From Cetorhinus maximus (Eukaryota): a stretch of 64,000 nucleotides of DNA. Each line of letters begins with the position of its first letter. Within the stretch, counting starts at the first letter, position 1. The stretch lies in contig NC_135901.1 in the NCBI RefSeq assembly GCF_964194155.1, positions 26,660,001-26,724,000 on the forward strand, read 5' to 3'. The notes under the pieces were generated by a model. The model made no database searches. It saw only the letters and a list, made by a program, of their open reading frames with translations, and was not told the DNA's origin. This document shows positions 5,194 through 48,885 of this stretch, in pieces. A program made the position numbers and the translations under genes.

Positions 5194-5868
5194 TCACTTG
5201 TGAATTCGCTGGTGAATCACAAAGTTGGATGAACGAGTGAACTCTTTCCCGCACACAGAGCAGGTGAACGGTCTCTCCCCAGTGTGAACTCGCTGGTGTC
5301 TCAGCAAGTTGAAAGAATGGGTGAATCCCTTCCCACACACGGAGCAGATGAACGGTCTCTCCCCGGTGTGAACTCTTTGGTGCTCCACCAGACTGGATGA
5401 CTGAGCGAATCCCTTCCCACACACGGAGCAGGTGAACGGCCTCTCCCCAGTGTGAGTTCTCTGGTGTTTCCGCAGGGTGGATGACTGTGTGAATCCCTTC
5501 CCACACTCGGAGCAGGTGAACGGCCTCTCCCCGGTGTGGGTGCGTTGGTGTGTGACCACCTCACTTCTGCTTTTGAAACTCTTCTCACATTCCGAACATT
5601 TGAAAGGTCTCCTGTCAGTGTGAACACGTTGGTGTGTCAACAGACTGGATAACTGTGCGAATTCCTTCCCACATACCAAGCAGGGGAATGGCCTCTCCCC
5701 GGTGTGAACTCGCATGTGGATATGGAGCTTGGATGTCTCTGCAAATCCCTTCCCACAGATAGAGCAGGTGAACGGCCTCTCCCCAGTGTGACTGCGTCGA
5801 TGGATTTCCAGCTGGTACGGATAATTGAATCCCTTCCCACAGTCCCCACATTTCCATGGTTTCTCCAT
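5194..5868 (-). CDS. C2H2 zinc-finger protein (ZNF-1), 8 tandem fingers, no effector domain
   Basis: ORF 5194..5904. First ATG at 5868 in accATGg context gives [27 protein letters not shown]; 8 CxxC-x12-HxxxH units with mostly TGERP linkers; ends HQRIHK*. Confidence 0.9.
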
Positions 5869-6232
5869 GGTGTGGGTGTCATTGCATCTCTCCAGGTTGG
5901 ACAATCAGTTGAAGGCTCTTTCACATAGAACAAGTGTATGGTTTCGTCCCGCTGTGAATGGTGTGGTGTATTTTCAGGCTGTGGAACTGGCTAAAGCTCT
6001 TTCCACAGTCAGTGCACTTGGACACACTCACTCGGGTGTGTGTGTCTCGGTATTTTTCCAGTCACACTGATGTTTGAAATCTTTTTCCCACAGACAGAAC
6101 AGGCAAACGTTCCTCTGTCCACATTCAAAGACAGATGATATTCAGGCTCTGATGAATCAAGTCTCTCGATCAAATACTGATTATGATGTTTGGTTTGAGT
6201 TTCCGGTCCGTAAATCCTTGTCTTCTAATATC
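5869..6232 (-). other. non-coding leader derived from three decayed zinc fingers, preceded by a splice acceptor
   Basis: Acceptor ccttttacag at about 6233-6242. Decayed [42 protein letters not shown] and FN*LSNLER with frameshifts. Confidence 0.75.
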
Positions 6233-6394
6233 CTGTAAAAGGAGTTTACAAAATTCAGCAAGAACAGGATAAAAATTCAGAATGGACAATTCTGGTTTCT
6301 ATGAAACATTCTTTCAACTATCTTGTTTTCCCAAACGCGTCATCCAGTCAAACTGAAAGAAGCCAAAATCAGCATCACAGCCCAAACAAGAGTT

Positions 6395-6860
6395 TAGAGA
6401 ACCTTCCTAACTAAACCAGAATGTTGTTTCCAGTGTCTGTGAGACACTCTGTACCGAGGTGCCCACTGGTGGTGGAAGGTACCAACCGTACCGATGGACA
6501 CCACATGCTCCCTCTCCAGAGCCACCCAGACACGGACAAGACCATGGGAGGGAGGCCAGCAGCCAGAATAACCGCCCAGCCCCCACCAAACCCCATGTGT
6601 CCCACCCATCCCAAATCTACAAATTGCTGTTTCAACCAGGCCCAAGAGCAGGTCCAGGAGAAGATATACCAACCTACCCACCCGCTTCCACATTGGGCAG
6701 ACAAAAGATTAGGAGACTGGGGCTGAAATGTAACTAAAAGTTGAGCAGTAGCCCCTTCAGGTAACTATACAGGGGCTGCAACCTCTCATACTGAATGTAC
6801 ACGGCCCATGGACTCCTCTAGGCTGTAAACATGACCTGTAGCCCGGGAGTGGGTGAAGCT
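6395..6860 (-). mobile_element. Tx1-clade LINE 3' fragment
   Basis: LLLDLLLGLVETAICRF...VRVWVALEREHVVS...WAP; same family as 2400-3020. Confidence 0.7.
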
Positions 6861-7124
6861 GTTCGAAAACCTGACACCCAGGATGCTCAAGGAGGATGGG
6901 AAGATTCAGGAAAGCAGAAAGGGAAATGTCAAGGTTACAGAGCTCTGCAGCGTTTTGGTAAAAATAAGCAGAGTGGGTCAGGAAGAGACAGCGAGAGTAA
7001 CAAAGCGAATAGGGCATTAGTGACAAAGGTGACATCAGGGAGAATTAGAAAAATATCGAAGCAAAAGGTGCCAGATCTAAATGTGCAAAGTGTTTGCAAC
7101 AAATTAGATGACTGTTCAGGTTGG

Positions 7125-7460
7125 ATCTGCACACAGAACACATGTACAATCGCTCCCAGCTGCACGGTGCGCTATTTTGTTAGGTTTTGTAACTGGTTAA
7201 AACTCTTTCCAGTCAGTGCACTGGAACACTCTCACTCGTGTGTGTGTGTGTGTTTTTCTCAGTGATATTCCAGTCACAATATTGCTTAAAATCTCTTCTC
7301 ACAGTCAGAACAGTCAAACATTTCTCCTTCCACATTCAAAGGCCGATGATATTCAGGTCCTGATGAATCGAGTGACTCTGTCAGATCCTGACATGGTGTT
7401 TGGTTTGAATTTCTCATCTGCAAATCCAACCCTCAAAATACCCTGCAAATGGAGTTAAAA
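7125..7460 (-). pseudogene. extra isolated copy of the decayed zinc-finger leader
   Basis: Homologous to 5940-6240 (gatattcagg.cctgatgaatc, ccagtcac, cagtgcactggaacactctcactcg). Confidence 0.7.
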
Positions 7461-8019
7461 TTGAAATTCTCAGATATTCAAAAAAATAAAGACCATTCTA
7501 TTCAAATACTCTGCTGGTTTCTGTACACCACACACTTCTACTCCCATTCCATGCACCTCATCTTGGCCTTTCAGCTTTTTATTCCATTCCCTTTTCCCTC
7601 ATGTACTTATCTAGTTTCCTTTTGAAATTATCTCAGCTTTTTCCCTCAGTGGTTTCCTGAGTTCTGCATTGTAACCACTCTCTGAGTTTCAGGTGGAAAC
7701 ATTCTCTGCAATCCTACCCCGTCCAACCCATTGATCATTGTAAAGACCTCTATCAGCTCACTGCTAACTCTCCCTTTTTCCTAAAGGAAAAAAAGCCCCA
7801 GCCTGTTTAATCTTTCATAACAGGAGTATTTGTTTTGGTTTACAAAACTCATCACTGTCAATCCAGGATAGAAATTAAGAGACAAGCATGTCTCTTGATT
7901 TGAGTTTGCTGCGTGTAAATCCTCCCCTTCTAACCCCCTGTAAGAGGAGTTTCCAAAACCCCATCCCTGTCAGTCCAGGATAGAAACGCACAACATTCTC
8001 TCCTCCTGCTGACAGGGAC

Positions 8020-8790
8020 AGGGATGACTGCGCATGCGCACTGCTGCATTCTCTGATCAAAATGGCGGCGGTGACCCAGGGTCTGTCATCAGAAACCCCG
8101 CAGCTGCGGCTCCGCTTCATGAAAACGCGGAACCGATGGCTTTGTATTCGGAGCTTGAAGCCCACATAAAGTGTTTGTGAAACCTCCCAGTCCACCCGCC
8201 CGCTCTATCCCTCGCCTGCCCGGGGATATTTTTCACCTCCGCGGATTCCACACCGCCGCTTCCATCCGATTCTGGCACCTACACCGCGCATGCTCCAACC
8301 ACAACCCCCGCACCACGCCTGCGCGGGGGCTGCCGTGGCGGAAGAGAGAGCAACCGCCCCTCATTCAATCCGATTGGCGGGAGGACCCGGCAGCTCTTGT
8401 TCGGTCCTCCAGCCAATCGGCGTGATTGAGGGGGCGGGGCTGGAGGACCGGCTGCCCTCGTTCGGTCCTCCAGCCCCGCCCCCCTCATTCATTCCGATTG
8501 GCCGGGGGACTGGCTGCTCTCGTTCGGTCCTCCAGCCCCGCCCCCCTCATTCACTCCGATTGGCCGGGGGACTGGCTGCTCTCGTTCGGTCCTCCAGCCC
8601 CGCCCCCCTCATTCACTCCGATTGGCCGGGGGACTGGCTGCTCTCGTTCGGTCCTCCAGCCCTGCCCCCTCATTCACCCCGATTGGTTGGAGGACAAACC
8701 GCTCCCGTTCGGTCCTCCAGCCCCGATCCCTCTCTTCCTATTGGTCTGGAATAACAATCAGCCGCTTCCGGATCCTCTCGGGCCTGAACC
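8020..8790. promoter_or_regulatory. CpG-rich putative bidirectional promoter between ZNF-1 and ZNF-2
   Basis: High CpG density; NRF1-type gcgcatgcgc at 8030, YY1-type aaaatggcggc at about 8059, multiple CCAAT (attgg) and GC boxes. Confidence 0.75.
8355..8745. repeat. 62-bp GC-rich minisatellite built from CCAAT plus GC-box units, about 6 units with one inverted
   Basis: Unit cattcactccgattggccgggggactggctgctctcgttcggtcctccagccccgcccccct starts at 8486, 8548, 8610 and 8671; inverted unit at about 8404-8450. Confidence 0.92.
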
Positions 8791-9233
8791 TGAACCAAAG
8801 GCCCCATTGGGAAAAGGTGGTTGTTTCTGTTTAATTAAAATTACTGATAGAGACATGAAAGGTAATTTGCTGTCTTGACCCAAAGTATTTGGTGGAATTA
8901 GAGTGAAGGAGTGGAATTGACCCACAGCCTGAGTCACCAGTTTAAGGACAGGAGGAGAGAGAATCTGGAGAGGAGAAAAGAATAAGTAGGAGACTGGACA
9001 CTGAATCTGGGACAATGAGCAGAGAGGGAGAGGAGTGTGTGGGACAGAGATTTATAGATTTGGGGGAATGAAAGGGGAAAAATGTTCCATAGAAACCAGA
9101 ATTGTCTGTTCTGAATTTCTATCCTGTACTGACACTGATAACTTCTGTAAAAAATAAAAACAGGAAATGCTGGAAAATCTCAGCAGGTCTGACAGCATCT
9201 GTGGAGAGAGAAACAGAGTCAACGATTCGAGTC

Positions 9234-10091
9234 AGTGTGATTTGATCGAGCTGAGTGAGTGGGCAAATGCATGGCAGATGCAGTACAATGTGGATAAATG
9301 TGAGGTTATCCACTTTGGTAGCAAAAACAGGAAGGCAGATTATTATCTGAATGGCTATAAATTGAGAGAGGGGAATGTGCAACGAGGCCTGGGTGTCCTT
9401 GTACACCAGTCGCTGAAGGTAAGCATGAAGCAGCAGGCGGTAAAGAAGGCAAATGGTATGTTGGCCTTCATAGCCAGAGGATTCGAATACAGGAACAGGG
9501 ATCTCTTGCTGCACTTATACAGGGCCTTGGTGAGACCACACCTGGAATATTGTGTGCAGTTTTGGTCTCCTTATCTGAGGAAGGATATTCTTGCCACAGA
9601 GGGAGTGCAGCGAAGGTTTACCCGACTGATTCCAGGGATGGCGGGACTGACATATGAGGAGAGATTGAGTCGATTAGGATTATATTTGGTGGAGTTCAGA
9701 AGAATGAGGGGGGATCTCATAGAAACCTATAAAATTCTAACAGGACAAGACAGGGTAGATACAGGAAGCATGTTCCCGATGGTGGGGGAGTCCAGAACCT
9801 GGGGTCACAGTCTGAGGATATGGGGTAGACCATTTAGGACTGAGATGAGGAGAAACTTCTTCATCCAGAGAGTAGTGAGCCTGTGGAATTCGTTACCACA
9901 GAAAGTAGTTGAGACCAAAACATTGTATGCTTTCAAGAAGGAGTTAGGAATAGCTTTTGGGGCGAAAGGGATCAAAGGGTACGGGGAGAAAGCGGGAGCA
10001 GGCTATTGAGTTGGATGATCAGCCACGATCATAATGAATGGCGGAGCAGGCTCGAAGGGCCGAATGGCCTACTCCTGCTCCTAGTTTCTAT
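9234..10091 (+). mobile_element. 5'-truncated CR1 LINE (open C-terminal ORF2 plus 3' UTR)
   Basis: ORF 9167..10009 (WQMQYNVDKCEVIHFG, RPHLEYCVQFWSPYLRKD); 3' tail ends tttctat; gagtc on both sides. Confidence 0.93.
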
Positions 10092-10118
10092 GAGTCCATT
10101 TGACTCTTCTTCAGAAGA

Positions 10119-10157
10119 AGCTCTGAAGAAGAGTCATACGGACTTGAAACGTCAACT
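10119..10157 (+). ncRNA. minimal type I hammerhead ribozyme-like motif in a Penelope pLTR
   Basis: agct-CTGAAGA-a-GAGTC-atacg-GACTT-GAAA-c-GTC-aact; Penelope-like elements are known to carry such minimal hammerheads. Confidence 0.6.
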
Positions 10158-10384
10158 CTGTTTTTCTCTCTCCACAGATGCCATCAGATCTGCTGAGCTT
10201 TTCCAGCGTTTTCTGTTTTTATTTCAGATTTCCAGCACCCACAATATTTTGCTTATAACTTCTGTAAACTGCTTTTACAGGGGGTTACAAGGGGAGAAGT
10301 TCCAGGCGAGAAAAATCGTAACAAACATCCTGTCAAGATCTGACACGGCCACTCAATTCATCGGGACCTGAATATCATCGGCCT

Positions 10385-10594
10385 TCACACAGCGAGTGGT
10401 TCGGGTCTGGAATGCACTGCCTGGAAGTGTGGTGGAGGCAGGTTCAATCGAGGCATTCAAGAGGGCATTAGATGGTCATTTAAATAGAAACGATGCGCAA
10501 GGTTATGGGCAAAAGGCAGGAGAATGGCACTAAGTCATAACGCTCATTTGCAGAGCCGGTGCAGACACAATGAATGGGCTGAATGGCCTCCTTC
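10385..10594 (+). mobile_element. CR1 3' fragment fused to the ZNF-2 start
   Basis: ttcacacagcgagtggttcgggtctggaatgcactgcc...ggtgcagacacaatgaatgggctgaatggcctccttc is a CR1 3' end. Confidence 0.8.
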
Positions 10595-11718
10595 AGCTGG
10601 GAACTGATCAACGCAGTCAGACTGCGGAGAGACCATTCACCTGGTCCATGTGTGGGAATGGACTTACTCAGTTATCCAGTGCATTGACAGACCAGCGAGT
10701 TCACACTGGGGAGAGGCCGTTCAGATGTTCTGTGTGTGGGAAGGAATTCGCTGAATCATCTGAGCTACTGGTGCATGAGAAAGTTCACACTGAGGAGAGT
10801 CCATTCACCTGCTCTGTGTGTGGGAAGGGATTCACTCAGTCATCCCATCTCACTGAACATCAACTTGTACACGGCGATCAGAGACCTTTTAAATGTTCTG
10901 ACTGTGAGAAGAGCTTTAAAAGCAAGAAGTATCTGCGAGTACACCAGCGAGTTCACACTGGGGAGAGACTGTTCACCTGCTCTGACTGCGGGAAGGAATT
11001 TGTTCAGTCACACCACCTTCTGAGGCACCAGCAAGTTCACACAGGGGAGAGGCCGTTCACCTGCCCTGACTGCGGGAAGGGATTCACACATTCACACAAC
11101 CTTCTGACACACCAGCGAGTTCACACTGGGGAGAGGCCGTACACCTGCTCTGACTGTGGGAGCGGATTCACTCAGTTATCCCACCTTCTGACACACCAGC
11201 GAGTTCACGCTGGGGAGAGACCGTTCACTTGCTCTGACTGTGGGAAGGGATTCACTCAGTCACACCACCTTCTGACACACCAGCGAGTTCACACTGGGGA
11301 GAGGCCATTTACCTGCTCCGAGTGTGGGAAGGGATTCAGTCAGTCATCCCACCTTCTGACACACAAGCAAGTTCACACTGGGGAGAGGCCATTCACCTGC
11401 TCTGAGTGTGGGAAGGGATTCGCTCAGTCATACCAGCTTCTGATGCACCAGCAAGTTCACACTGGGGAGAGACCGTTTACCTGCCCAGTGTGCGCAAAGG
11501 GATTTACTCAGTCATCAAACCTACTGGTACACCAGCGAGTTCACACCGGGGAGAGACCATTCACCTGCTCCATGTGTGGGAAGGGATTCACTCAGTCATC
11601 CCACCTTCTAACGCATCAGCAGGTTCATAGGGGGGAGAGGCCATTCACCTGCTCCGTGTGTGGGAAGGGATTCACTCGGTCATCCCACCTGCTGAGACAC
11701 CAGCGAGTTCACAAATGA
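10570..11718 (+). CDS. C2H2 zinc-finger protein (ZNF-2), 12 intact plus 1 degenerate finger
   Basis: 382-aa ORF with 12 canonical CxxC-x12-HxxxH fingers and mostly TGERP linkers; ends HQRVHK*. The start ATG lies in CR1-derived sequence, so the true start is uncertain. Confidence 0.88.
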
Positions 11719-11771
11719 CTGCCAGAGTTGGATTGTGTTATTGCTGCCGTTAGTCACATCCAGGACTGAAC

Positions 11772-12106
11772 GTGTGGGTGAATCCTGAGGTGTGTAAGAA
11801 ATGTGTCACAGCCGCTCCCTTCCATGGTTCAGAACCCCTCGACGTGGAACAGAAGGGTCCTTTACAACTGGGTTTAGAGTCAGGAAGGACAATAGTGAAT
11901 GCTGGAAATGTGCTGTCAAATCAGAGATTGGTGTAAAACTGTGATCTGTTCCTGACTGAGAGTGAAACGGCAGGTTTAAGTTTCCAGTCTGAAAATGACT
12001 GTGGTAATTATGGTACGTAGATTTAAAATGTTTGTGTGACATTCCTGAGTCTACCAATGTAAGGCAATAACAACAAGAGGTTGCATTTCTACGTGGAACC
12101 TTCAAC
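11772..12106 (+). repeat. dispersed ZNF-associated 3' block, copy 2
   Basis: Closely similar to 46002-46335, including the downstream gcaataacaacaaga.gttgcattt junction. Confidence 0.9.
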
Positions 12107-13148: not shown

Positions 13149-14000
13149 AAATACAGAGTAGTACAGGAGCACATTGACAGTTTAACAGTCATCAGCCTGC
13201 AGGCTCCTGTTAAATACAGAGTAGTACAGGAGCACACTGACAGTTTAACACTCATCAGCCTGCAGGCTCCTGTTAAATACAGAGTAGTACAGGAGCACAC
13301 TGACAGTTTAACACTCATCAGCCTGCAGGCTCCTGTTAAATACAGAGTAGTACAGGAGCACACTGACAGTTTAACAGAGTCTTATCTGCCTGCAGGCTCC
13401 TGTTAAATACAGAGTAGTACAGGAGCACACTAACAATTTAACAGTCATCAGCCTGCAGGCTCCTGTTAAATACAGTGCAGTATAGGAGCACACTGACAGA
13501 TTAACACAGTCTCATCAGGCTGCAGGCTCCTGTTAAATACAGAGCAGTGCAGCAGCGCACTGACAGTTTAACAGAGTCTCATCAGCCTGCAGGCTACTGT
13601 TAAATACAGAGCAGTACAGGAGCAGACTGACAGTTTACCAGAGTCTCATCTGCCTGCAGGCTACTGTTAAATACAGAGCAGTACAGGAGCAGACTGACAG
13701 TTTAACAGAGTCTCATTCGTCCACAGGCTCCTGTTAAATACAGAGCAGTGCAGCAGCTCACTGACAGTTTAACAGAGTCTCATCAGCCTGCAGGATCCTG
13801 TTAAATACAGAGTAGTACAGGAGCTCACTGACAGTTTAACAGAGTCTCATCAGCCTGCAGGCTCCTGTTAAATACAGTGCAGTATAGGAGCACACTGACA
13901 GTTTAACAGAGTCTCATCAGCCTGCAGGCTCCTGTTAAATACAGTGCAGTATAGGAGCACACTGACAGTTTAACAGAGTCTCATCAGCCTCCAGGCTCCT
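13149..14000. repeat. minisatellite, 63-67-bp unit, about 13 copies
   Basis: Unit aaatacagagtagtacaggagcacactgacagtttaacagagtctcatcagcctgcaggctcctgtt. Confidence 0.95.
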
Positions 14001-18203: not shown

Positions 18204-18795
18204 TCACTTGTGAACTCGCTGGTGTGTCAGCAAGTGAGACGATCGAGCAAATCTCTTCCCACACACAGAGCAGGTGAACGGCCTCTCCCCAGTGTGAACT
18301 TGCTGGTGTGTCAGCAGATTAGATGACTGAGAAAACCCCTTCCCACACACAGAGCAGGTGAATATCTTCTCCCCTGTGTGAACCCGCTGATGTGTCACCA
18401 GGTTGGATGATGAAGTGAATCCCTTCCCACACACGGAGCAGGTGTACGGCCTCTCCCCGGTGTGAACTCGCTGGTGTTGAATGAGGTGAGACGACTGTCT
18501 GAATCTCTTCTCACATTGAGAACAACCGAACGGTCTCTCGTCAGTGTAAACAAGCTGGTGTTTAATTAGATCCGGTGAGATTTTAAAGCCTTTCCCACAA
18601 TCAGAGCATTTAAAAGGCCTCTCATCAGTGTGAACTCGCTGGTGTAACTGAAGGCTGGACATCAGAGTGAATCCCTTCCCACACACAGAGCAGGTGTACG
18701 GTCTCTCCCCTGCATGACTACGCCAGTGAGTTTCCAGCTGGGATGGGCAACGGAATCCCCTTCCCACAGTCCCCACATTTCCACGGTTTCTCCGT
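18204..18795 (-). pseudogene. C2H2 ZNF-3, probably a pseudogene or N-truncated (5 intact fingers, 1 His-to-Tyr finger, first finger frameshifted)
   Basis: ORF 18204..18776; ACG instead of ATG at 18795 and an extra G in gggaaggggattc break finger 1. Confidence 0.72.
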
Positions 18796-19351
18796 GATGC
18801 AGGTGTCCGTGTGTCTCTCCAGGTTGGATGATCAGTTGAAGACTCACTTACATTCAGAACACTTGTCCAGTTTCTCCCTGCTGTGAATGTGGTGATGTTT
18901 CTCCAGGCTGCGTAACTGGTTCATGTTCTTTGCACAGTCAGTGCATTGGAACACTCTCACTCAGGTGTGTGTGTGTGTGTGTGTGTCTTGGTACTTTGGT
19001 TTGCGATCCTTTCCTGTAAATCCTCTCCTTCTAAAACACCTTGTAAAAGAAATTTACAAAACCGAGCCCTGTGAACACAGGATAGGTATTCAGAACAGAC
19101 CGCGCTAGTTCTGACGGAACATTCTTTCTTCTCTCGTTTCCCCAAACATCCACAGCAATGGGCTTGATTTTTACTGCCCTCTGAAATGATCTAACAAACC
19201 ACTCAGCTGTAAAAACGCAGCGGAAAGCAGTAGACCGTGGGCGTACCTACACCAAAGTACCTGCAGCAGGTCAAGAAGGTGGCTCAGCATCACCTTCTCA
19301 AAGGCAATGAGGAACAGGGAACAAATGCCAGTCTTGCCAGCGATGCACACG

Positions 19352-19680
19352 TCACAGAATCACAGTGCAGAAGAGGCCCTTCGGCCCATCGAGTCTGCAC
19401 CGGCACATGAGAAACACCTGACCTACCTACCTAATGCCATTTACCAGCGCTTGGCCCATAGTCTTGAATGTTATGATGTGCCAAGTGCTCATCCCGGTAC
19501 TTTTTAAAGGATGTGAGGCAACCCCCCTCCACCACCCTCCCGGGCAGCGCATTCCAGACCGTCACCACCATCTGGGTAAAAAAGTTTTTTCCTTACATCC
19601 CCCCCAAACCTTCTGCCCCTCACCTTGAACTTATGCCCCCTTGTGACTGACCCTTCAACTAAGGGGAACAGCTGCTCCCA
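19352..19680 (-). mobile_element. CR1 3' fragment
   Basis: EQLFPLVEGSVTRGHKFKVRGRRF; same 3' tail as 34608-35095 and 60750-61768. Confidence 0.88.
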
Positions 19681-19834
19681 AGACGGACTTAAAAGAAACC
19701 ACAAATATGAAACCTATGGGTTTGCTTTCCTGAGTGCAAATTCTCCCTTCCGTAACCCCTTGGAAAAGGAGTTTGGAAAATCCAAGACCGTCAGCCCAGG
19801 ATAGAAAATCACAACATTCTCTCCTCCTGCTGCC

Positions 19835-20010
19835 GGGCCCAGAACGACCGCGCGTGCATCCTCCTGCGTCACGGTCGATCAAACCCGAAGACCCACCCCG
19901 CTGGAGACACACGTGATCTCCAATGGACCAATCGGCTTCTCTCTCGGGCAGAGGGAGGAGTTGAAAAAGGGGTCTGAAGCCCAGCCCACTCAGTGTTCCT
20001 GCACGGAAAT
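19835..20010. promoter_or_regulatory. GC-rich promoter remnant of ZNF-3
   Basis: Follows the ctctcctcctgc module as at 7997-8010; CpG-rich with two CCAAT motifs at about 19920-19933. Confidence 0.5.
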
Positions 20011-20104
20011 TAAGGCGAATTGACCCTTTTCCCTTCACCCCAGTAATTAATTAATTATAAACGAATTGGGACTCTCAATGTGGAGGTTTGACCCAGCTTC
20101 GCCC

Positions 20105-21335
20105 ACGGTGGAGAATGTCCCCTGTAGACATACTGTATTTTGATTTCCAGAAGGCATTTGATAAGGTGCCACATCAAAGATTATTACGGAAAACAAAAGC
20201 GCATGGTGTAGTGGGTAACATATTAGCATGGGTAGGAGATTGTCTGGCTGGCAGAAAGCAGAGAGTATGCATAAATGGGTCTTTTTCTGAATGGCAGGAT
20301 GTGACGAGTGGCGTCCCACAGTGGGTCTGTACTGGGGCCTCAACTTTTTACGATTCACATCAATGACTTAGATGAGGGGAGTGAAGACCTGGTAGCTAAA
20401 TTTGCAGATGACACAAAGATAAGGTAGGAAAGTAGGTTGTGAAGAGGACCTGAGGAGATTGCAAATGGATACAGGTAGGTTGAGCGAGTGGGCACAGATC
20501 TGGGCAAATGGAGTTTAATGTGGGAAACTGTGAAGTTGTTCACTTTGGAAGGAAGAATAAAAAAAGCAGAGTATTACTTGAATGGAGAACGGCTGCATAA
20601 TTCTGAGGTGCAGAGGGATCTAGGTGTTCTAGTACATGAGTCACAAAAAGTTAGTGTGCAGGTACAGCAAGTAATTAAGAAGGCTAATGGAATGCTATCC
20701 TTTACTACGAGAGGAATTGAACATAAAAGTGAGGATGCTTCAGTTACACACGGAATTGGTGAGACCGCACCTCGAACACTGTGTGCAGTTTTGGTCTCCT
20801 TATTCAAGGAAGGATAGAAATACATTGCAGGCGGTTCAGAGGAGGTTTGCTGGATTGATACCTGGAATGAGTGGGTTGTCTTATGAGGAAAGGTTGGACA
20901 GACTGGGCTTGTTTCCACTGGAGTTTAGAAGAATGAGGGGTGATTTGATTGAAGTTTACAAGATCCTGAAAGGCCTTGACAAGGTGGACGTTGAAAGGAT
21001 GTTTCCTCTTGTGGGTGAGTCCAGAACTAGGGGGCACTGTTTTAAAATTAGGGGTCGCCCTTTTAGGACAGAGGTGGGGAGAAATTTTTTCTCTCAGGGG
21101 GTTGTGCGACTTTGGAACACTCTGCCTCAGAAGGGGGTGGAGGCGGGGTCGCTGAATATTTTTAAGGCAGGGGTAGATGGATTCTTGTTAGGCGAGGGAA
21201 TCGAAGGTTATCGGGGTTAGATGGAAACGTGGAAATCGAAATACAAGATGATCAGCCATGATCTTATTGAATGGTGGAGCAGGCTCGAGAGGCCAAATGG
21301 TCTACTCCTGTTCCTATTTCTTATGTTCTTATATG
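20105..21335 (+). mobile_element. 5'-truncated CR1 LINE between two promoter halves
   Basis: VDILYFDFQKAFDKVPH, GVPQ, RPHLEHCVQFWSPY; 3' tail tcttatgttcttatatg. Confidence 0.93.
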
Positions 21336-21344
21336 TTTTATCCA

Positions 21345-21660
21345 CATCGCAGGACAGCAGTGCGCAGGCGCAGTGCGGAACACGAGCATGCGCAGTCCGA
21401 GTGATGGCGGTAGACAGCTTGTTTGTTGCATGTGAAGCCGGTTGAGCGGTGGCAGTGAGGTGGAGGGAGCGATGGAGCTGGAGGGTGGGCAGAGAGGTGT
21501 CAATAATGCCCGGCGTAGGCTGCAAGCACGGCAAAAGAACCTGCAGGTCCAGCATTTACAACCTCAGGGATTTTTGACACAGAAACAGGCCCAAGTTACA
21601 GCCACCATCTGGTTTCAGTAGGGAAGAGAGCGCGTGCGCGGCCATCTTGTTAACGCAGTG
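21345..21660. promoter_or_regulatory. CpG-rich promoter of ZNF-4
   Basis: NRF1-type tgcgcaggcgca and gcatgcgca; YY1-type gcggccatctt at about 21638. Confidence 0.6.
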
Positions 21661-22003
21661 GAGAGTGGGTGAATGGGTGTTCAGGGTTCTATGTGACCAG
21701 GAGAAAAAAACAATTGACGCCGATTTTATTCTCAGTCTGCAGACAGGGACTGGAAAACTGAACCCAGGCAGAGAGGAGAGGGAGGGAGGGAGAAAACTGG
21801 GGGCGGAGGAAAGAAATGGTGTAGATGGGTGAGATGGGTTTGGATTTCAGCCTGGGGAGGAAGGGAGAGTGTGTGGGGGGACGGGGATTTACAGCTTTGG
21901 GGGAAACAAGAGAAGGAAAAAAATATTCCACAGAAACTAGAATTGTCTTCTGAATTTCTATCCTGGACTGACAGTGAATGACTATTATAAACTCCTTTCC
22001 CAG

Positions 22004-22557
22004 GTTATTAGAATGGAGGATTTGCCTACAGGAACCTCAAGCATCGTGTCAAGAGCTGACAGAGTCACCCGAGTCAGCAGGACATGAGTATCATCAGCCT
22101 TTGAATGTCGAGGAAGAAATGTTTGCCTGTTCTGTCTATGGAAAAAATATTACAAACTTCGGTGTGACTAGAAAAGCACCGGGACACACACACACACACC
22201 CGAATGAGAGTGTTCCAGCGCACTGACTGTGAAAAGAGCTTTCACCTGTTACACAGCCGGAATAAACATCACGCCATTCACAGCGGGGAGAAACTAAACT
22301 GTACAGCCGCTGTGTGTGTGTGTGTGTGGATGAGGATTCAACTGATTGTTTCACCTGGAGAGACACCAGGACACTAACACCACGGAGGAGCCATGGAAAA
22401 TGTGGGGACTGTGGAACCGGATTCATCCCCCCCAATCCCTGCGGGAAATGCATCGGCGTATCCACACTGGGGAGAGGCCGTTCACCTGCTCCGAGTGTGG
22501 GAAGGGATTCACTGTGTCGCCCAATCTGCTGAGACACCAGGACGTTCACAAGGTGAC
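22004..22557 (+). pseudogene. C2H2 ZNF-4 pseudogene (decayed leader plus 2 fingers, frameshifted)
   Basis: Acceptor ttcccag at 22003; decayed leader; ACG at 22382; extra A in tggaaaatgt; one intact finger [21 protein letters not shown]. Confidence 0.8.
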
Positions 22558-22819
22558 TGCAGAGGGTTTGGATTCCACTGTTATTCCTGTGGTTAATCAC
22601 CTCCAGGACTGGACAACGTTCATTTTGTGACACTTGGGTGTCTGTTTCTGCTGCTGACGATGATCCCCATAACTGGGCTGGAGGTTAATATTCTGGATGA
22701 ATGTCAAATAAATCAGCTTGGTTTCAAACAGATAGTGGGTGGAGTGTTTGTTTCCTCCAGGATAAGAGGAACTAATTAAAATCCTGTTCCAGAAAGATTT
22801 GTATTTTTGCAGCCAACAA

Positions 22820-29049: not shown

Positions 29050-29380
29050 GGTGCGGGTGCCCTTGTGTCTCTCCAGGTTGGACGATCAGTCGCAGCCTCG
29101 TCCACACGCAGTTACGCGTGGACGGTTTCCCCCCCGCGGTGAACGGTGTGGTGTTTTTTTCAGGCTGTGTAACTGGTCCAAGCTTCTGTCACAGGTCTGT
29201 CTCGGTGCTTTTCCAGTCACGCTGATGTTTGAAATCTTTACCCACAGGCAGAACAGACAAATATTTCTCCTTCTATATTCAAAGGCCGATGATATTCAGG
29301 TTCTGATGAACCTCTTGTCAGATTTTGACCTGATGCTTGATTTGATTTGGTTGTTCCTCTGTCAATGCTCCCCTAATCCC
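29050..29380 (-). other. decayed zinc-finger leader of ZNF-5 with upstream splice acceptor
   Basis: Acceptor ccttttccag at 29381-29390; FQTSA*LEKHRD and CD*SSNLERHKGTRT-M. Confidence 0.75.
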
Positions 29381-29504
29381 CTGGAAAAGGAGTTGAAAAG
29401 AGTCCTCACTGTAAACACAGGATGTAAATTCAGAACAGACAGTTCTAGTTTCTGTGCAATATTATTTCCCCCAAATCTGTCAACCCCAGTCTCTGTCTCT
29501 CAAA

Positions 29505-30120
29505 GGAAAGAGCTAAACCCTGCTCAACATGGCGGCCGGTTGCCTGGGTAACCCGGGCCTTTCACCCGGAGAGGAAACCCCGCCCATTCCCTCACCAAGA
29601 TGGCCGCCCATGAGCCCCGCCTTCCTCTCCCGACAGAGCGGCCGGTTCTCTGGGTGACCGGGACCTGTCACCAGGGAGCAAGCCCCGCCCACTCCCTCTT
29701 CCCTCACCAAGATGGCCGCCCATGCGCCCCCGCCTCCGTGATCGGCCCTGACTCCCACTCGCAAGATGGCGGCCAGTGAGCCCACTCCCCGCCCCCCCCT
29801 CCACCTTCCCCCCCCGCGGGGCCTCTCACCGCGGGGTAAACACGGGGCCTGTGGCCTCTTATTCGGGGCCTGGGGCCTACCGCAGAAGTTGATCCAGTTC
29901 CCAGCCCAGCCGCGGTTTCCATTCCTACCCTGTCCTCACAATCTCCTCCCGCCACCCGAACCGTCCGCTCCTCCTCACTCTGTCACCATGACTGACACTG
30001 AGCATGCTCAGAGCGCACACCCACACTGCACCTGCGCACTGGACTCCTATGGTCATTGATAGGGGACATTCTGCAGCGCGGGGTGTTCTGGGTAACTCAG
30101 CCGGCATAGAGCGCAATGAG
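29505..30120. promoter_or_regulatory. CpG island promoter of ZNF-5
   Basis: Very GC/CpG-rich; four YY1-type motifs at about 29526, 29598, 29708 and 29763; NRF1-like motifs at 30000-30040. Confidence 0.78.
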
Positions 30121-37232: not shown

Positions 37233-39762
37233 CATGCTTAAAAAGTACTTTGACAGGGAAGATGACCAAATGGAGGTATTACTGGTGGTAGATAAGAGAA
37301 AGAGGTAGAAATGAAGGATTCTGAAATTGACTTTCCTTTAAATTGGATAATGAGGGGGTACTTAAAAATTAAATGTAACATTGAGTTACCTTCTAGGCAA
37401 TTTTCCAAGTGATTTAGAGAAGTTGTTGCGGTTACACAAAGCTATTTGTGGGAATAAGCTAGGGAGGGCAAATTTAGTTGTGCATGATGTAAATGTGGGT
37501 GATGCAGTTTCAATAAGGAAACATCCTTATGGATTAAGTCCAGCAAAATTATCACAAGTACAGAAAGAAATCAAATTCATGCTTCAAAATGATATCATAG
37601 AGTCTGGTTGCAGTAACTGGAGTTCACCTATTGCGCTGGTCCTGAAACCGGATGGAACACAAAGGTTATGTGTGGATTATCGAAAAGTAAATGCAGTGAC
37701 AAAAGCGGATTCATATCCTATTCCAGGGTTGGAAGATTGTCTTGAGAAAGTGGGACAATCAAAGTTTATCACAAAGATCGACTTTCTGAGAGGATATTGG
37801 CAAGTGCCATTATCGGAGAGGGCAAAAGGAGATACCGGCTTTTGTGACACCAGATGGACCATATCAATTTAAAGTTGGTATGAAAAATGCACCAGCAACA
37901 TTTCAAAGGCTGATAAACAAAGGAATTGCAGGGCTGAGCAATTGTGCTGTTTATATCGACGACTTGATAGTTTTCAGGCAAACGTGGGAGGAGCATTTAC
38001 AACATCTGAAAGAACTGTTTGATCGACTTCGAGAAACTAATTTGGTGGTGAACTTGGCTAAAGAGTGAATTTGCAAAAGTGCAAGTCACACATCTAGGCC
38101 ATGCCATTGGACGTGGTAAGGTAGCTCCGAGAGATGTGAAAATAAAAGCCATTGTGAATTTCCCAGTGCCTACAACAAAAGAAGTTTTGAGATATCTGGG
38201 GATGAGTGGATTTTATCAGCAATTTGTACCAAATTTTAGCAGCATGGACGCTGCATTGACTGAACTGTTAAAAAAGAACAAGAGGTTTCAGTGGGCACAG
38301 GAGTGTCAGAAAGCATTTGGCAGTTTAAAAACTATGTTGACTGCAACACCAGTTTTTTCGGCAGAACCTAATTACGCCAAGCCATCTAAGCTGCCATTTG
38401 ATGCGAGTGATGTAGGTGTTGGTGCTGTACTGTTGCATGATGATGAGGCTGGAATTGAGAAACTGATAGGATATTTTTCGCGCAAGCTGAATGTGCATCA
38501 TTCAACCATTGAAAAGGAGACTCTGGGTCTGGTATTAGCAGTACAGTGTTTCAAGGTTTATGTTGCAAGCAATTCTTCAGAAACAATTGTTTATGCAGAT
38601 TTCTGGACAAATTTCAAGACCAAGAAAGTGCAAGACTGTTCAGATGGAGTTTATTACTGCAGCCGTTTAATTTACAGATTATACATGTGGCTGGACGAGG
38701 AAATCTAATTGCAGATGCATTGTCGAGAGCTTAAAGCTCAAAAGGAAACTGGACATTTAAAACCTGGATGCTGGACTGAAATGACCCCTGTTGACACAAA
38801 GGATTTGTAAATATTGCTGTGTTAACGCATGTCCCTGGTAATGTAACGGTTTGTGTACATCGTTAAGTATAGTAAGTAATGTAAGATGGATTGAGAAAAT
38901 GGAGCCATCTTTTAAAGTTATGACAGTTCATTTTTCCATAAGGATGGAGGTGTCACAAAACTATAATAAGTTTCATAATATCATTGTGGCTTATTGTAAA
39001 GTAGGTTTATGGGTGTGAGTATAGCTCGTTTGGTCTGTGTGATTTAATTAAATTAGAGTCAGATAGGCTGCAAGCTGAAATTATCCAAAGAAGCTAGGGG
39101 TAAAAGGCATTTGGAATGCGAATGAGTAAATATGGATGAGGCCTTAGCATGTAGGGTGTGAAGGAATTTTGCATTTTTAGATAAGCGAAAGAGTTGTTTG
39201 GGTTTCAAAGGGATGGTAGGATGTTCACAACTAACAAGATAAATAGGGCAAGGTTATTATGTTTATTTTTCCCAAAAGGTACTGACCATATTGGCAACAT
39301 GAAAGATTTTTATATTATGGGAAAAGTACATTTCCAAAGACATATAGAACAATGGAATTTACAGATTAAAGACAGAGAAACATATATAAATAAAAGAGGA
39401 AGTTGATGTTGTGGGGATATACAAGAACTAGAAGGAGTGTCTAAAACAGTCTTGGGGAAGCCTCCAGCCATGTTTGCAAAAGTCTGCTGTGTCCAGTAAC
39501 TAGTGATTAGGAACTTTGGGATGTGTTATAATGTTAAGACACTGTAATCTTATGTATGTGCTTGAAATCTTTTCATTGGTTAATAAATGTTTTAATTTAG
39601 TTCTTAAGATCTCTAGAAGGTGTGAGCGGACTCATTACTTCTGAATCCAGTGCCCAAATCTTCTCGCAATAAATACAAATTGCAAAACTGTTGTGATAGT
39701 GTAGCCAAGTTTCCCTTGTGGGTTTAGTCTGCCTGGCACACAACACCTGCCGCGTCATAACA
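37233..39762 (+). mobile_element. Gmr1-like Gypsy, 3' half (post-integrase linker, RT, RNase H, 3' LTR)
   Basis: RLCVDYRKVN, GMKNAPATFQR, VYIDDLIVF, DASDVGVGAVL, STIEKETL, ADALSRA*; no integrase after RNase H; PPT 38940-38950; LTR 38951-39762. Confidence 0.9.
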
Positions 39763-42700: not shown

Positions 42701-42794
42701 AAGGCTACAATACATTCTCCAGACTAGGAAAACTCTGCCCCTTATAAACTTGCCTCCGCTTGGTGTTGATTGGCTGCTCTGACCACCAAGGTTT

Positions 42795-43740: not shown

Positions 43741-43984
43741 CTGACCATCAAGGTTTGCCTTAAAGCAACGTTCACCACACCAGTTATTCCTTGAAGTCAG
43801 CCCTTGAATTGTTTGTGCATTGTTTCATCATGTTCCCACATTTCAGTAACAAATGTTGAAATGTTTGCTCCACACCCACAGGGTTTCATCTGTTTAAAGC
43901 CACAAACAGGAAGATCCAGTTTTCTCCTGGAGTTTGAGACAAATCAGCTTCCAAAATGATGCAGAGTTTCAGCCAATGAGGGAG

Positions 43985-44480
43985 ATCAGGGCTCAGCCCC
44001 GCCCCTCATTCATCCCGATTGGTTGGAGGACCAGCCGCTCTCATTCGGTCCTCCAGAACCGCCCCCTCTTCCTATTGGTCCGGAGCTGCCGTCAATCACT
44101 CCCCGGGCCTTGTGATCTGGAGCATGCGCAGTGCGGGTGATGCCCATGGCTAAGACGCCTGTTTGACTCACCTTCAGGCGGGAAGGACCTTCGCTTGGGC
44201 GAAGGAAGCGTGAGGTGCGTTGGGTGGGCGGAAAGGCTTTATAAGCCAGTATAGGCCTCGAAGGCGAAACAAGAAGTTACTGGTCCCGAGTTTGCATCGA
44301 GCCGGGAGGATTTTTTTTCCGCAGGGCCTTTCTCGGTCACAGGTCCGAGTAAACAGCCGCCATCTTTATTGGGGGCGATGTGCAGCAGGGCGCATGCGCA
44401 GCTTCCATCTTGAGCGGGGTAAATGTGCAGCGGTGCGCATGTGCGGTCATTCCTCCTCCGCCTCCTCCCCCCCCAAGCAG
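43985..44480. promoter_or_regulatory. CpG-rich promoter of ZNF-6
   Basis: Single copy of the CCAAT/GC-box unit (43995-44085); NRF1-type gcatgcgca at about 44122 and 44392; YY1-type gccgccatctt at about 44356. Confidence 0.75.
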
Positions 44481-44684
44481 GAGGAGAGAATGTTGTGAAT
44501 TTCTATCCTGGACTGACAGGGATGGGTTTTGGAAACTCCTTTTACAGGGGGTTAGAGGGGGAGGATTTACGCAATGCAAAGATCACATTAAGATCTGACA
44601 GAGTCACTCGATTAATCAGAACCTGGTTGTTATCGACCTTTGGGTGTAAGCATTGCGTCCCAGGTCATCACCGCTCTCCATGGG

Positions 44685-44842
44685 GGAGACAGTGGTAACG
44701 TCCCTGGACTAGTAATCGAGAGGCCCAGGCTAATGTCCGGAGGACAAGGGTTCAAACTCAACCAGCTAGTGGAATTTAAATTCAATTAATTACCTGGAAT
44801 TTAAAAGCTAGCCTTCGTAATGGCGACTGTGAAACCATTGCC
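44685..44842 (+). mobile_element. tRNA-like SINE / LINE-head fragment
   Basis: agtggtaacgtccctggactagtaatcgagaggcccagg...ggttcaaact...ggaatttaaaagctag; related to 31186-31340. Confidence 0.55.
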
Positions 44843-45288
44843 GTGACTTTGTGGGAATGGGAAATTGTGAGGGACTGAAATTTACAGCTTTGGGAAACAA
44901 GAGAGTAAAATATATCTGCTAGAAACTAGAATTATCTGTTCTGAACTTGTGGCCTGGACTAACCTGTCTAAACTGGTTTTACAGTGTTATAAGGATTGGA
45001 TGGACAGATAGGAAACTCAAATCGAACATCACATCGAGATCTGACCGATTCACTCAATTCATCAGGACCTGAATATCATTGGCCTTTGACTGAGGAAGGA
45101 ATGTTTCTCTGATCTGTCCGTGGGAAAAGATTTCAGACATCAAGTGTGACTGGAAAAGCACCGAGACACACACACACACACACACACACACACCCGAGTG
45201 AGAGTGTACCAGCGAACTGACTGTGGAAAGAGCTTTACACAGCCTGAAAAAAAAATCACACCGTTCTCAGCGGAGAGAAGCAATATAC

Positions 45289-45945
45289 ATGTGTGTTGTG
45301 GACGAGGCTTCAAGTGATCATCCCAACCTGGAGAGACACAAGGACACCAACACTACGGAGAAACCGTGGAAATGTGGGGACTGTGGGAAAGGATTCAGCT
45401 ACCCGTCTGAGTTGGAAATTCATCGACGCACTCACACCGGGGAGAGGCCATTCACCTGCACTGCGTGCGGGACGGGATTTTCTCGTTTGTCCAACCTGCA
45501 GAGACACCAGCGTATTCACTCCGACGTGAGAATCTTTAAATGCTCCGACTGTGAGAAGAGCTTTAAAAGCAGCAGTGACCTGCAGAAGCACCAGCGCACT
45601 CACACCGGAGAGAGGCCATTTGCCTGCCCCGTGTGTGGGAAGGGATTCACGTGTTCATCCAACCTGCTGAAGCACCGGCGCACTCACACTGGGGAGAGGC
45701 CGTTCATCTGCTCTGTGTGCGGGAAGGGATTCACTGGGTCTTTCACCCTGCTGCAGCACCAGCAAGTTCACACGGCAGAGAGGCCATTCACCTGCTCCGA
45801 GTGCGGGAAGGGATTCACCCGTTCGTTCACCCTGCTGTCACACCAGCGAGTTCACACTGGCGAGAGGCCGTTCACCTGCCCTGTGTGTGGGAAGGGATAC
45901 ACTCGGTCGTCTCATCTCCTGAGACACCAGGTAGATCACGACTGA
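45289..45945 (+). CDS. C2H2 zinc-finger protein (ZNF-6), 7 fingers
   Basis: ORF 45223..45945. First in-frame ATG at 45289; ACG at the paralogous start position (45355); 7 fingers from [21 protein letters not shown] to [21 protein letters not shown]. Confidence 0.85.
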   Translation: MCVVDEASSDHPNLERHKDTNTTEKPWKCGDCGKGFSYPSELEIHRRTHTGERPFTCTACGTGFSRLSNLQRHQRIHSDVRIFKCSDCEKSFKSSSDLQKHQRTHTGERPFACPVCGKGFTCSSNLLKHRRTHTGERPFICSVCGKGFTGSFTLLQHQQVHTAERPFTCSECGKGFTRSFTLLSHQRVHTGERPFTCPVCGKGYTRSSHLLRHQVDHD

Positions 45946-46001
45946 CTTGAGGGGTTGGAATCCACTGTTTCTGCCGTTAATCACATCCAGGCCAGATTCA
46001 T

Positions 46002-46335
46002 GTGTGGGTGAATCCTGAGGTGTGTAAGAAATGTGTCACAGCCGCTCTCTTCCAATGGTTCAGAGCTCGTAGACATGGAACAGAAGGCTCCTTTACAACT
46101 GGGTTTAGAGTCAGGAAGAACAACGGTGAATGCTGGAAATGTGCTGTCAAATCAGAGATTGGTGTAAAACTGTGATCTGTTCCTGACTGAGAGTGAAACG
46201 GCAGCTTTAAGTTTCCAGTCTGAAAATGACTGTGGTAATTATGGTACGAGGATTTAAAATGTTTCTGTGACATTTCTGATTCTACAAATGTAGGGCAATA
46301 ACAACAAGAAGTTGCATTTATATAGAACCTTCAAC
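46002..46335 (+). repeat. dispersed ZNF-associated 3' block, copy 3
   Basis: Homologous to 11772-12106; core 46142-46241 differs from the other two copies at one base. Confidence 0.9.
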
Positions 46336-48057
46336 TTTGTAAAACATCCCAAGGTGCTTCACAGATGGCCAAAAGCTTGGCCGAAGAGGTAGATTTCAAG
46401 AAGTATCTTAAAGGAGGAGAGAGAGGTTTAGGGAGGGAATTCCAGAGCTCAGGAACTCGGTAGCTGAAAGCACGGCCACCGATGCTGTCGTGATGGAGGT
46501 AGGGGATGCATTGGATGAGAGCAGGGAGCTCGGAGAGTCATGGGCTGAAGGAGGCTCCAGAGGGGAGGAGGAAGAGGAGGCTCCACAAATAACACCGTTC
46601 TCAACGATGGGAGAGCCCAACACATCAATGCAAAAGATGAGGCTGGAGCATTTGCAACCACCTTCAGCTAGATGTGCTGAGTGGATGATCCATCATGTTC
46701 CCCAGCGTCACAGATGCCAGTCTTCAGCCAATTCGGCTCCACGTGATATTAAGAAGGACTCTGGTCCTCCAGCCAATCAGAGCGCGAGCTTTGCGCTTAT
46801 GAAGATTGAGCTTCACCCCCAACAAATACTTCCTCGCGGGTCCAACATCTGTGCGTAAAGCACTTTCTTCCCTCCCCTTTCCATTTAGTTTCCGATTCTC
46901 GGTTTATTTCTGTTGATTTTAGTTTGATTGTTACAGTAAAAGCTTTTCTCGAGCGAAATCTTGCCCTTTGGTTCATGCCCTTGGAATTGTCTGAGAACTG
47001 GTTTATCGTAGAAGTGACCAGTCTCCATGGAGACCGTGGCAACATCGATATGTCTAGTATTGTTAACATGGTACACATGAGATATATCATTTATGGTTCT
47101 GTAATAAAGTATATTGATTACTATTACTAGTCTTGTAATACATGACTGTAGTTGCCTTATACATTTCCAGTCGTGGGGTCATTACAGCACAGAAGGAGTC
47201 CAATCTGAAACGCGGGCTCTTTCCTCCCCCCTTTCCATTTCTTTGCTGGTTCTGGGTTTGTTTGCTGTCGATTTTAGTTTGGTCGTTACATTAAAGTTTG
47301 TAATCTTGCTCTTCAGTTTACTCCCTCGGTGTTTGCCTGAGAATTGGTTTCTTTTAAAGCCGTCGGTCCCCATGGGGATTGCAACCGCATTGATATGTCC
47401 TGCGTCGTCACACGGTACATATGAGATATGCTATTTGTGCTTCGATCATAAAGTACACATTATTTCTAGCCTTGTCGTATAGTCCTGTGGCAATGGCATA
47501 TATTTCCAGTCGGAGAGCCATTGTGGCACAGAAGGTGCCCATTCGGCCACTCGTGGCCCATGCCGACTCTCTGTGGAGCAATCCAGTCAGTCCCATTCCT
47601 CCTCTATATCCCCATTCCCCAGCAAGTTTATTTCCTTCAAGTGCCCGTCCAATTTCATTTTGAAACCGTTCGTCTTGGCAACCACCAGGCTCATAGGCAG
47701 CAAGCTCCAGGACACGGCCACTCGCTGCTTAAATAAAGTTTTTCCTCACATTGTCTCCTGTATTTCTAATCAATCAATGTAGTACTGTATATCGCACACA
47801 TTTTTAGTCCAGTTTTATCCATATATGAAATATATACGTATGGCGAACAGCCTGCATGAAGATTTTCTTATCTTTGTGTCCCAGACAGAAAGCGGTGAAT
47901 TGGGAAGGTGTATATTCGGTACCAACAGAGTGAGAATGGAGGGAGTGTGTGTGTGGGGCTGGAGATTTACAGCTTCAGGGGAACGAGAGACAAAAGAATG
48001 TTCCATCGAAGCCAGAATTGCCTATTCGGCGCTGACTTTTGCAACTCCTTTTCTCAG

Positions 48058-48885
48058 GATATTAGAAGGGGAGGATCTACAGACAGAAACCTCAAACCGA
48101 ACATCACATCATTTTCTGACAGAGCCACTCAAGATTCATCGGGACCTGAATTTCACTGACCACTGATTCTTGGAGGAGAAGTGTGTGTCTGTTCTGTCTG
48201 CTTCAAAAGGTTTTAAACATCAGTGTGACTGGAAAAGCACCAAGACACACACACACCCCTCCCAAGTGAGAGTGACCCAGTTCACTCAGAGAATTTTACA
48301 GTCTGAAAATACATCGCACCACTCAGAGCAGGGAGAGACCAGACCAGAACTGTTGCGTGTGTGGACGAAGCTTGAACTGCCCGTTGAAACAGGAGAGACA
48401 GAAGGATACGCGCACCATGGAGGAGGAAAAAGTGCTGGAAGCTCATTGATGTGTTCACACTGGGGAGGGGCCTTTCACCTGCTCTGTGTGTGGGAAGGGC
48501 TTCACTCAGTTATCCAGCCTGCAGACACACAATCACATTCGCACTGGGGAGTGTCAATTCACCTGCTCTGTGTGTGGGAAGGGCTTCACTCGGTTATCCA
48601 GCCTGCTGAGACACCTTGGTGGCCACACCAATGAGAGACCTCTCCAATGCTCTGACCGTGGGGGGTGACTTTAAGAACTCTGAGGAACTAATGGTCCACC
48701 AGCGCATTCACACTGAGGAGAGACTGTTCAACTGCTCTTGCTGCACAAAGTGGTTTAGAACGTCATCCAGCCTGAGCAGACACCAGCGAGTTCACACCGG
48801 GGACAAGCCATTCATCTGCTCTGTGTGCGGGAGGGGATTCACTCAGACATCCACCCTGCAGAGACACCGGCGAGCTCACAAGTGA
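48058..48885 (+). pseudogene. C2H2 ZNF-7 pseudogene (decayed leader plus about 5 fingers, frameshifted)
   Basis: Acceptor ttttctcag at 48057; accATGg at 48417 followed by a deleted first finger; fingers split over ORFs 48486..48668 and 48616..48885. Confidence 0.82.

Follow-up and report, generated by a model that had tools for sequence, protein, structure and literature searches.

Can a vertebrate lineage keep a large family of zinc-finger (ZNF) genes whose proteins have no separate effector domain, and if so, how would such proteins act? The question is raised by a 64,000-nt stretch of the Cetorhinus maximus genome (contig NC_135901.1, here C24, positions 26,660,001 to 26,724,000, i.e. C24:26.66-26.72 Mb), which we call the window and whose coordinates are counted below from its first letter. 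A six-frame motif scan located C2H2 arrays at seven places (genes A to G), and self-BLAST found the acceptor and leader regions of different loci to be 65-80% identical, which bears out the claim of a first-pass annotation, made from the window's letters alone, that seven paralogous loci follow one template (CpG promoter, splice-acceptor module, leader of decayed fingers, finger array and shared 3' untranslated region (UTR)). We regard the feature as real, and the common architecture as well supported, with high confidence. Several details of that description had to be amended. Genes A to F, of which A and B stand head to head, have CpG-rich promoters upstream, with a CpG observed/expected ratio of 0.62-0.80 at five promoter regions vs 0.44 for the whole window, but gene G has no clear one (GC content 0.46). 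The 3' UTR is present at all seven loci, although the pattern as originally spelled gave no match in the window at up to 3 mismatches, because its spacing varies. The number of fingers does differ between copies, but over a range of 1-15, depending on the motif used, rather than 2-15. Three copies (C, D and G) are broken, the number that had been stated, but B and F are abnormal too, which leaves A and E intact. Finally, what had been taken for a local cluster is part of a chromosome-wide family.

The family comprises two interleaved subtypes. In type I, to which the window genes belong, the leader is long and the start reads MEKPWKC; type II has a short leader, an MEGKSTVHS start and an arginine codon at the site of the second TGA of type I. 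The observation that carries our argument concerns the leader, a linker remnant with three decayed fingers between the acceptor and the array. Type I copies were gathered by BLAST coverage from 1.42 Mb made up of search-hit loci, the even samples and three blocks of contiguous sequence, of which one surrounds the window and another was picked for gene density; the counts rest on the 60 copies not derived from search hits (59 after removal of redundancy), with G (no recognisable start) and B and C (failed coverage filter) left out. Not one of the 59 copies has a leader free of stops in the array frame. Two stops recur, TGA1 (kept in 46 copies) and TGA2 (in 52). The start ATG survives in 50 copies, the acceptor AG in 56, and a purine occupies position -3 of the start in 59/59. 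Leader indels, mostly frameshifting, amount to 0.8-1.0 per 100 nt per copy vs 0.13 in finger 1. With the majority sequence as reference, the ratio of non-synonymous to synonymous differences (pN/pS) is 0.48 for finger 1, whereas leader values span 0.75-1.2. The leader is non-coding and the predicted type I proteins are finger-only: with the leader closed in the array frame, an exon spliced to the acceptor cannot add a domain to them.

Database models from other sharks end exactly at the position of TGA1 in Pristiophorus (sawshark) and Heterodontus (horn shark) and at that of TGA2 in Carcharodon (white shark), which suggests that both stops are common to distant sharks. As judged from these model ends, and not from stop codons read in those species, the leader would have been dead before the two main shark lineages separated, and that split is deep. 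Type I could have originated through the decay of an older linker and of three N-terminal fingers, with a finger linker giving rise to the new start, at a time when the main shark lineages had not yet diverged. Other roles considered for the leader found no support. A conserved RNA structure is not apparent (the alignment fold of 60 copies is empty; a hairpin window has a mean z of -0.8, with values below -2 in 20% of 30 copies), read-through of the TGAs is rejected because the leader frames are broken, and exon 1 does not qualify as a conserved coding exon, its ATG and phase being inconsistent among copies (candidates have at most ~13 codons). Signs of special constraint on the leader are mixed: its divergence is below that of the adjacent intron (0.135 vs 0.19) and of silent sites in finger 1 (ratio 1.83), yet on a par with that of non-CpG four-fold sites (0.115; 7 sites only).

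Expression would then proceed from a short exon 1, non-coding or holding only an upstream open reading frame, spliced to the shared acceptor; ribosomes would pass the upstream ATGs by leaky scanning or re-initiation and begin translation at the ATG in strong context. As 57/59 copies carry 1-8 upstream ATGs in the leader, translational damping by the leader is a plausible candidate effect. No RNA data set is listed as covering 5000-8400. Among 15 joints shown of 231, in contigs of four presumed-RNA runs (three from other organisms) over 5800-8350, no clean exon-1-to-acceptor junction was found; most contigs of such runs covering leader regions are <95% alike and thus represent paralogues.

Searches for effector domains agree with the finger-only reading. 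The genome yielded one KRAB match, a single short exon on contig C34 (9123034-9123144; 150 of 152 candidates scored), which we take to resemble a PRDM9-type KRAB exon; no KRAB is in frame with an array, the leader being closed in 59/59 copies. The same closed leader excludes an in-frame SCAN, and none of the 150 scored among 4,987 SCAN-like candidates lies on C24; these candidates, which occur here and there on most large contigs, are probably Gmr1-type retrotransposon gag. For BTB the result is likewise negative, as judged from the closed leader and the displayed Pfam hits, no BTB profile search of the genome having been made, and a 28-aa acidic FiNZ upstream exon is absent as judged indirectly, without a FiNZ profile, from the closed leader and the short exon-1 candidates. 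Pfam reported only zinc-finger-type families for four long open reading frames of the window (best 25 matches displayed for each), Rfam reported no match, and a PxVxL core with basic flanks is absent from the window proteins. Proteins A and E have no exact entry in the protein collection searched, and the whole-protein homologue search was dominated by unrelated ZNFs.

The window genes are, by extrapolation from samples, a small part of a shark family filling most of C24 (65 Mb in a genome of 3.99 Gb). In 33 even 20-kb samples of C24 (660 kb) we found 58 arrays of at least 2 fingers, with 21/33 samples positive, while 14 control 10-kb stretches from seven other contigs contained none; the extrapolated C24 total is ~5,700 arrays (bootstrap 3,900-7,500), broken copies included. 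The genome-wide count of start sites, proposed in the first-pass annotation as a check, gave 644 and 660 exact matches to patterns of 25/27 nt (reversed controls: 0), with only 3 and 1 on contigs C1-C23 among the first 100 matches listed per pattern. A first look returned 3,338 leader and 2,961 promoter-side module candidates, and the best 40 of each all lie on C24 (2.3-63.4 Mb) or on small contigs. Named relatives with the linker or the first finger are all elasmobranch (Heterodontus, Stegostoma, Pristiophorus, Carcharodon, Scyliorhinus, Chiloscyllium, Mustelus and rays), i.e. the family persists across sharks and rays.

We found no linkage of C24 with histone or major histocompatibility complex (MHC) genes: the best 150 histone matches are on C32, C39, C22 and small contigs, while for MHC class I the contigs are C22 and two small ones. 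C32 and C39 carry very large histone gene arrays (2,465 candidates), and two type I start sites were found among MHC class I exons at C22:29.3-29.8 Mb. Two sawshark models (P0121, P0126) consist of histone sequence fused to the family linker, so that some sharks may have histone genes mixed in with ZNF genes.

If the proteins have only fingers, are the fingers maintained? An ATG with at least 4 fingers is kept in 35/60 type I and 24/44 type II copies, the other 25/60 and 20/44 (~40%) being broken. At the frameshift rate of the leader, survival of only ~10% of 4-finger and ~1% of 8-finger frames is expected; open arrays are far above this neutral expectation, and arrays are thus selected to stay open. 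Within the arrays the linker has a pN/pS of ~0.4, and the finger scaffold is, on such comparisons among copies, under purifying selection. The entropy reaches 3.1-3.25 bits at helix positions -1/3/6 vs 0.3-1.5 at most scaffold positions (conservation of Cys and His is conditioned by the search motif and carries no evidential weight), and 74 genes have 69 distinct fingerprints. This supports the earlier proposal of an independent, effector-less expansion under birth and death: the leader is closed in 59/59 copies, the single KRAB match is on another contig, ~40% of copies are broken and the specificity residues are the most variable. The accompanying statement that no KRAB, SCAN or BTB is visible held as well. 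Of the selection expected at helix positions, hypervariability of -1/3/6 was found, but the confidence intervals of the contact-position pN/pS include or fall below 1. As for the cryptic effector also suggested, a spliced exon is unlikely for the window genes, but a handle inside finger 1 is conceivable.

It is this first finger that offers a clue to function. An atypical W-finger stands near the N-terminus in 47/59 intact genes of both types. A knuckle Asp, Pro at +1 and Glu at +5 are nearly fixed in it and are lacking or variable in internal fingers: Pro occurs at +1 in 45/46 W-fingers vs 8/361 internal fingers, and Glu at +5 in 37/46 vs 1/361. In 18 independent pairs, four fixed non-contact positions of the W-finger have a pN/pS of 0.10 (0-0.22) vs 1.23 (0.86-1.66) at -1/3/6. 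The constrained residues fit a shared binding surface, which makes the W-finger a candidate cofactor handle. We lean, with somewhat better than even confidence, towards the interpretation that the predicted products of intact members are bare DNA-binding arrays. These would likely single out repeats or transposons for silencing, with a shared partner probably recruited via the W-finger and not via a separate effector domain. ZNF and retroelement numbers are reported to correlate across animals independently of accessory domains, and the zebrafish genes with a FiNZ exon (FZNFs) to repress young transposable elements (PMC10547256).

Several observations weigh against the silencing interpretation. 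The W-finger is missing from 12/59 intact genes and its contact residues vary, so that it may be a plain DNA-binding finger on an unusual scaffold. For the 9 closest pairs the contact-position pN/pS is 0.74 (0.23-0.92), and for 14 wider pairs it is 1.26 (0.92-1.51), 4/18 pairs being below the identity cut; arrays diverge faster than their own leaders, which points to finger shuffling and confounds the value for the wider pairs, and an arms race explains the contact-position ratios no better than relaxed constraint does. Ser predominates at position +2, and the fingerprints seen most often are generic ones. Nor are the window genes recent products of an arms race: they are old (the best paralogue of leader A is 82% identical), and only 2/7 of them are canonical and intact. 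As to the wider family, 4/32 type II linkers are open and in frame, so that a minority of its members could still accept an upstream exon.

The alternative that survives best, though we find it rather unlikely, is that the proteins bind DNA or RNA and recruit nothing: by occupying repeats they would keep transcription factors off or prevent recombination there, the W-finger being a structural cap. Heads of 6 residues (29/35 type I) and tails mostly of 1-2 residues (34/59) indeed leave no room for a domain, and the varying contact residues of the W-finger behave as in other fingers, but a bare cap does not readily account for the constraint at the four positions outside -1/3/6, three of which differ from, or vary freely in, internal fingers. 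A second alternative, which we hold to be decidedly unlikely, attributes the expansion mostly to segmental duplication that ran away on a chromosome rich in repeats; a few copies would be ordinary transcription factors, and the family would have no special link to transposons. The many broken copies of both types, the co-duplication of intron, leader and UTR, the similar leader divergence of intact and broken copies (0.137 vs 0.132) and the contact-position ratios are in keeping with it; against this, over half of the arrays are open where neutrality predicts at most 10%, the scaffold is under purifying selection and the family has been kept across sharks and rays. An effector exon brought into frame by an alternative acceptor near the ATG, or because the conserved TGAs are recoded or read through, is highly improbable, since the facts that speak for it (many copies have a linker that is open throughout as an acidic frame, a homologous linker is translated in ray relatives, where a conserved motif precedes it at the N-terminus, and TGA1 lies within a hairpin of the consensus fold) are countered by leaders in frame from an upstream ATG in only 16/60 copies (TGA-only stops in 4, several with compensating frameshifts), by an alignment fold without consensus structure and a hairpin window of mean z -0.8, by a linker devoid of codon-position signal, by inconsistent exon-1 ATG-to-donor lengths and by database N-termini upstream of the linker that match translated promoter DNA with stops and no Pfam family.

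The ray relatives deserve separate consideration. Batoid W-finger ZNFs share the W-finger and a homologous linker with those of sharks; unlike in sharks, the linker is translated in the database models, behind a conserved PxVxL-type motif with basic flanks. An N-terminal stretch ending RPRVVLRRL is common to models from Mobula, Pristis, Rhinoraja and Hemitrygon (P0144, P0146, P0148, P0149), in frame with the W-finger and the translated counterpart of the dead shark linker, which is shortened in the Hemitrygon model. The core of this motif fits the PxVxL consensus for HP1 binding with basic flanks, a motif that is described as not sufficient alone (PMC12526061). Six matches to the ray N-terminus were obtained, i.e. 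the four ray models and 2 unrelated repetitive proteins; a fifth ray model, from Hypanus, is without the RPRVVLRRL motif, and an atlas search with the ray N-terminus gave only leads below 0.9. The motif was not found in the C. maximus genome (two queries), in 1.4 Mb of C24 or in the window proteins; the single genome match (E-value 0.6, on C6) looks like chance. We regard the ray motif as a candidate effector module of the ray branch with putative HP1 binding, whether lost in sharks or gained in rays. A bolder reconstruction would see here a third independent ZNF silencing system in elasmobranchs beside KRAB and FiNZ, with an ancestral N-terminal HP1-binding PxVxL-type module kept in rays and lost in sharks, where the linker and three fingers became 5' UTR and finger-only genes multiplied to thousands along an entire chromosome, silencing transposons with the invariant surface of the W-finger as cofactor handle; we consider this unlikely.

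Within the window, the template is best seen in the intact genes. The coding array of gene A (5868-5194, minus strand) has an ATG-MEKPWKC start, 8 C2H2 fingers and a 1-residue tail, and that of gene E (29049-27775, minus strand) the same start and 15 fingers including a duplicated W-finger; both starts are in strong context. The non-coding leader of A (5869..6232, minus strand), with linker remnant, three decayed fingers and frameshifts, has stops at TGA 6064-6062 and 5907-5905 and a predicted acceptor AG at 6234-6233; the leader, GC-rich intron and promoter of E occupy 29050..30100 (minus strand), with TGA stops at 29219-29217 and 29088-29086, a predicted acceptor at 29380, a predicted exon-1 donor at 29928 and, in the intron, four motifs that are presumably YY1-like. 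Upstream of A there are also an orphan duplicate leader (7134..7460, minus strand; predicted acceptor 7442) with no array behind it and an extra acceptor module (7895..8072, minus strand; predicted acceptor 7937), preceded by motifs that we take to be YY1-like and NRF1-like; the predicted exon-1 donor of A is at 8236. Other extra acceptor modules are at ~19758 and 44548. The CpG-rich promoter between A and B (8030..8800) is probably bidirectional, and a 62-bp tandem repeat of CCAAT/GC-box units (8357-8732) lies between these two genes; among the sampled genes head-to-head neighbours are a median 4.5 kb apart vs ~6.5 kb for other orientations.

The remaining five genes depart from the template in various ways. 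The acceptor region of B (9049..10385, plus strand; predicted acceptor 10281) is split by a nested retroelement insert of ~1.1 kb (9138-10268) with a 14-bp target-site duplication (9138, 10255), and its open array of 12 fingers (10570..11718, plus strand) has lost the W-finger and most of the leader to a fragment resembling a long interspersed nuclear element (LINE), which supplies the sole ATG. Gene F (promoter, exon-1-like segment and the module at 44548 in 43950..44640; leader and open array in 44985..45945, plus strand; 7 fingers in 45355-45945) has ACG at the usual start (45355) and an in-frame ATG 66 nt upstream, at 45289. ACG also replaces the start of the broken array of C (18204..18795, minus strand), which has a frameshift in finger 1 and 5 complete fingers, behind a shortened leader with two acceptor modules and a CpG promoter (18796..20050, minus strand). 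Gene D (21330..22627, plus strand) retains a CpG promoter, a predicted acceptor (22004), a leader with both TGAs and the 3' UTR motif, with the W-finger frameshifted and one finger left in the array (~22380-22560), and gene G (47940..48960, plus strand) a predicted acceptor (~48058), a decayed leader, a frameshifted array of 3 fingers ending at 48885 and the 3' UTR motif.

Between the genes, spacer remnants resemble LINEs and long terminal repeat (LTR) retrotransposons, and reverse transcriptase, RNase H, integrase or endonuclease families were identified in 6/12 scanned fragments; decayed LTR-retrotransposon-like (reverse transcriptase, RNase H, integrase) and LINE-like pieces lie at 35038-38708 and 51700-61630. 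Two segments (35702-36709 and 30712-31266), with no Pfam match, we take by eye to resemble the end of a Penelope-like element. An element of ~270-300 bp with 88-89% identity recurs immediately beyond the 3' UTR in genes A, B and F (4295-4563, 11797-12106, 46027-46335), and minisatellites are present at 13149-14000 (67 bp x 13 copies) and 24086-24634 (45 bp x 12 copies).

How does the shark family compare with known systems? With the cyprinid FZNFs of zebrafish chromosome 4q it shares a lineage-specific expansion to hundreds or thousands of genes concentrated on one chromosome, birth and death, and a gene in two parts whose array sits entirely within a single exon; it differs in its non-coding pre-array region, where FZNFs carry an in-frame N-terminal coding exon of 28 aa, and in that its repression of transposable elements is putative, that of FZNFs being reported (PMC10547256). 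The tetrapod KRAB-ZNF clusters are similar in their tandem clustered paralogues, a single exon with a TGEKP-linked array that starts with a linker, variable -1/3/6 positions, gain and loss of fingers and many pseudogenes; the shark family, however, has no KRAB, and its linker is a non-coding remnant. As tandem arrays of at least 2 C2H2 fingers without a KRAB, SCAN or BTB exon, the shark genes belong with the ZNF-only polydactyl genes, which are sometimes numerous (1,026 models in zebra finch; PMC3971581, Table 1); as described there, that class is a default bin including gene fragments and conserved factors, whereas the members of the shark family have a template in common, a leader of fossil fingers and a first finger that is diagnostic.

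Clusters of recent ZF duplicates have been reported on catshark chromosomes 13 and 17 (PMC11979771), and 3,586 and 1,851 ZNF open reading frames in Scyliorhinus canicula and Carcharodon, respectively (PMC10547256 supplement). These very probably represent the same expansion. Named shark proteins share the W-finger and the linker; the sections of these reports considered here offer counts or one sentence only, without architecture or domain analysis (PMC11979771, PMC10547256). In the literature covered, which excluded subscription papers, we found no description of the finger-only leader-plus-array architecture. KRAB families are reported as lost in cartilaginous fish (PMC8455134), and TRIM28 as present in elephant shark (PMC8292531). 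The shark family, organised like the FZNF and KRAB-ZNF clusters and a member of neither, is best filed as a lineage-specific ZNF expansion. Dozens of uncharacterised ZNF families have been named (PMC10547256).

What use KRAB-less vertebrates make of large ZNF repertoires is an open question on which this family permits a clean test. Its genes number thousands on a single chromosome, the type I form leaves no space for any N-terminal domain, and the W-finger is a constrained candidate surface; the sister lineage, the rays, adds a comparison with its candidate HP1-binding motif. At stake is whether sequence-specific silencing needs a dedicated effector domain at all.

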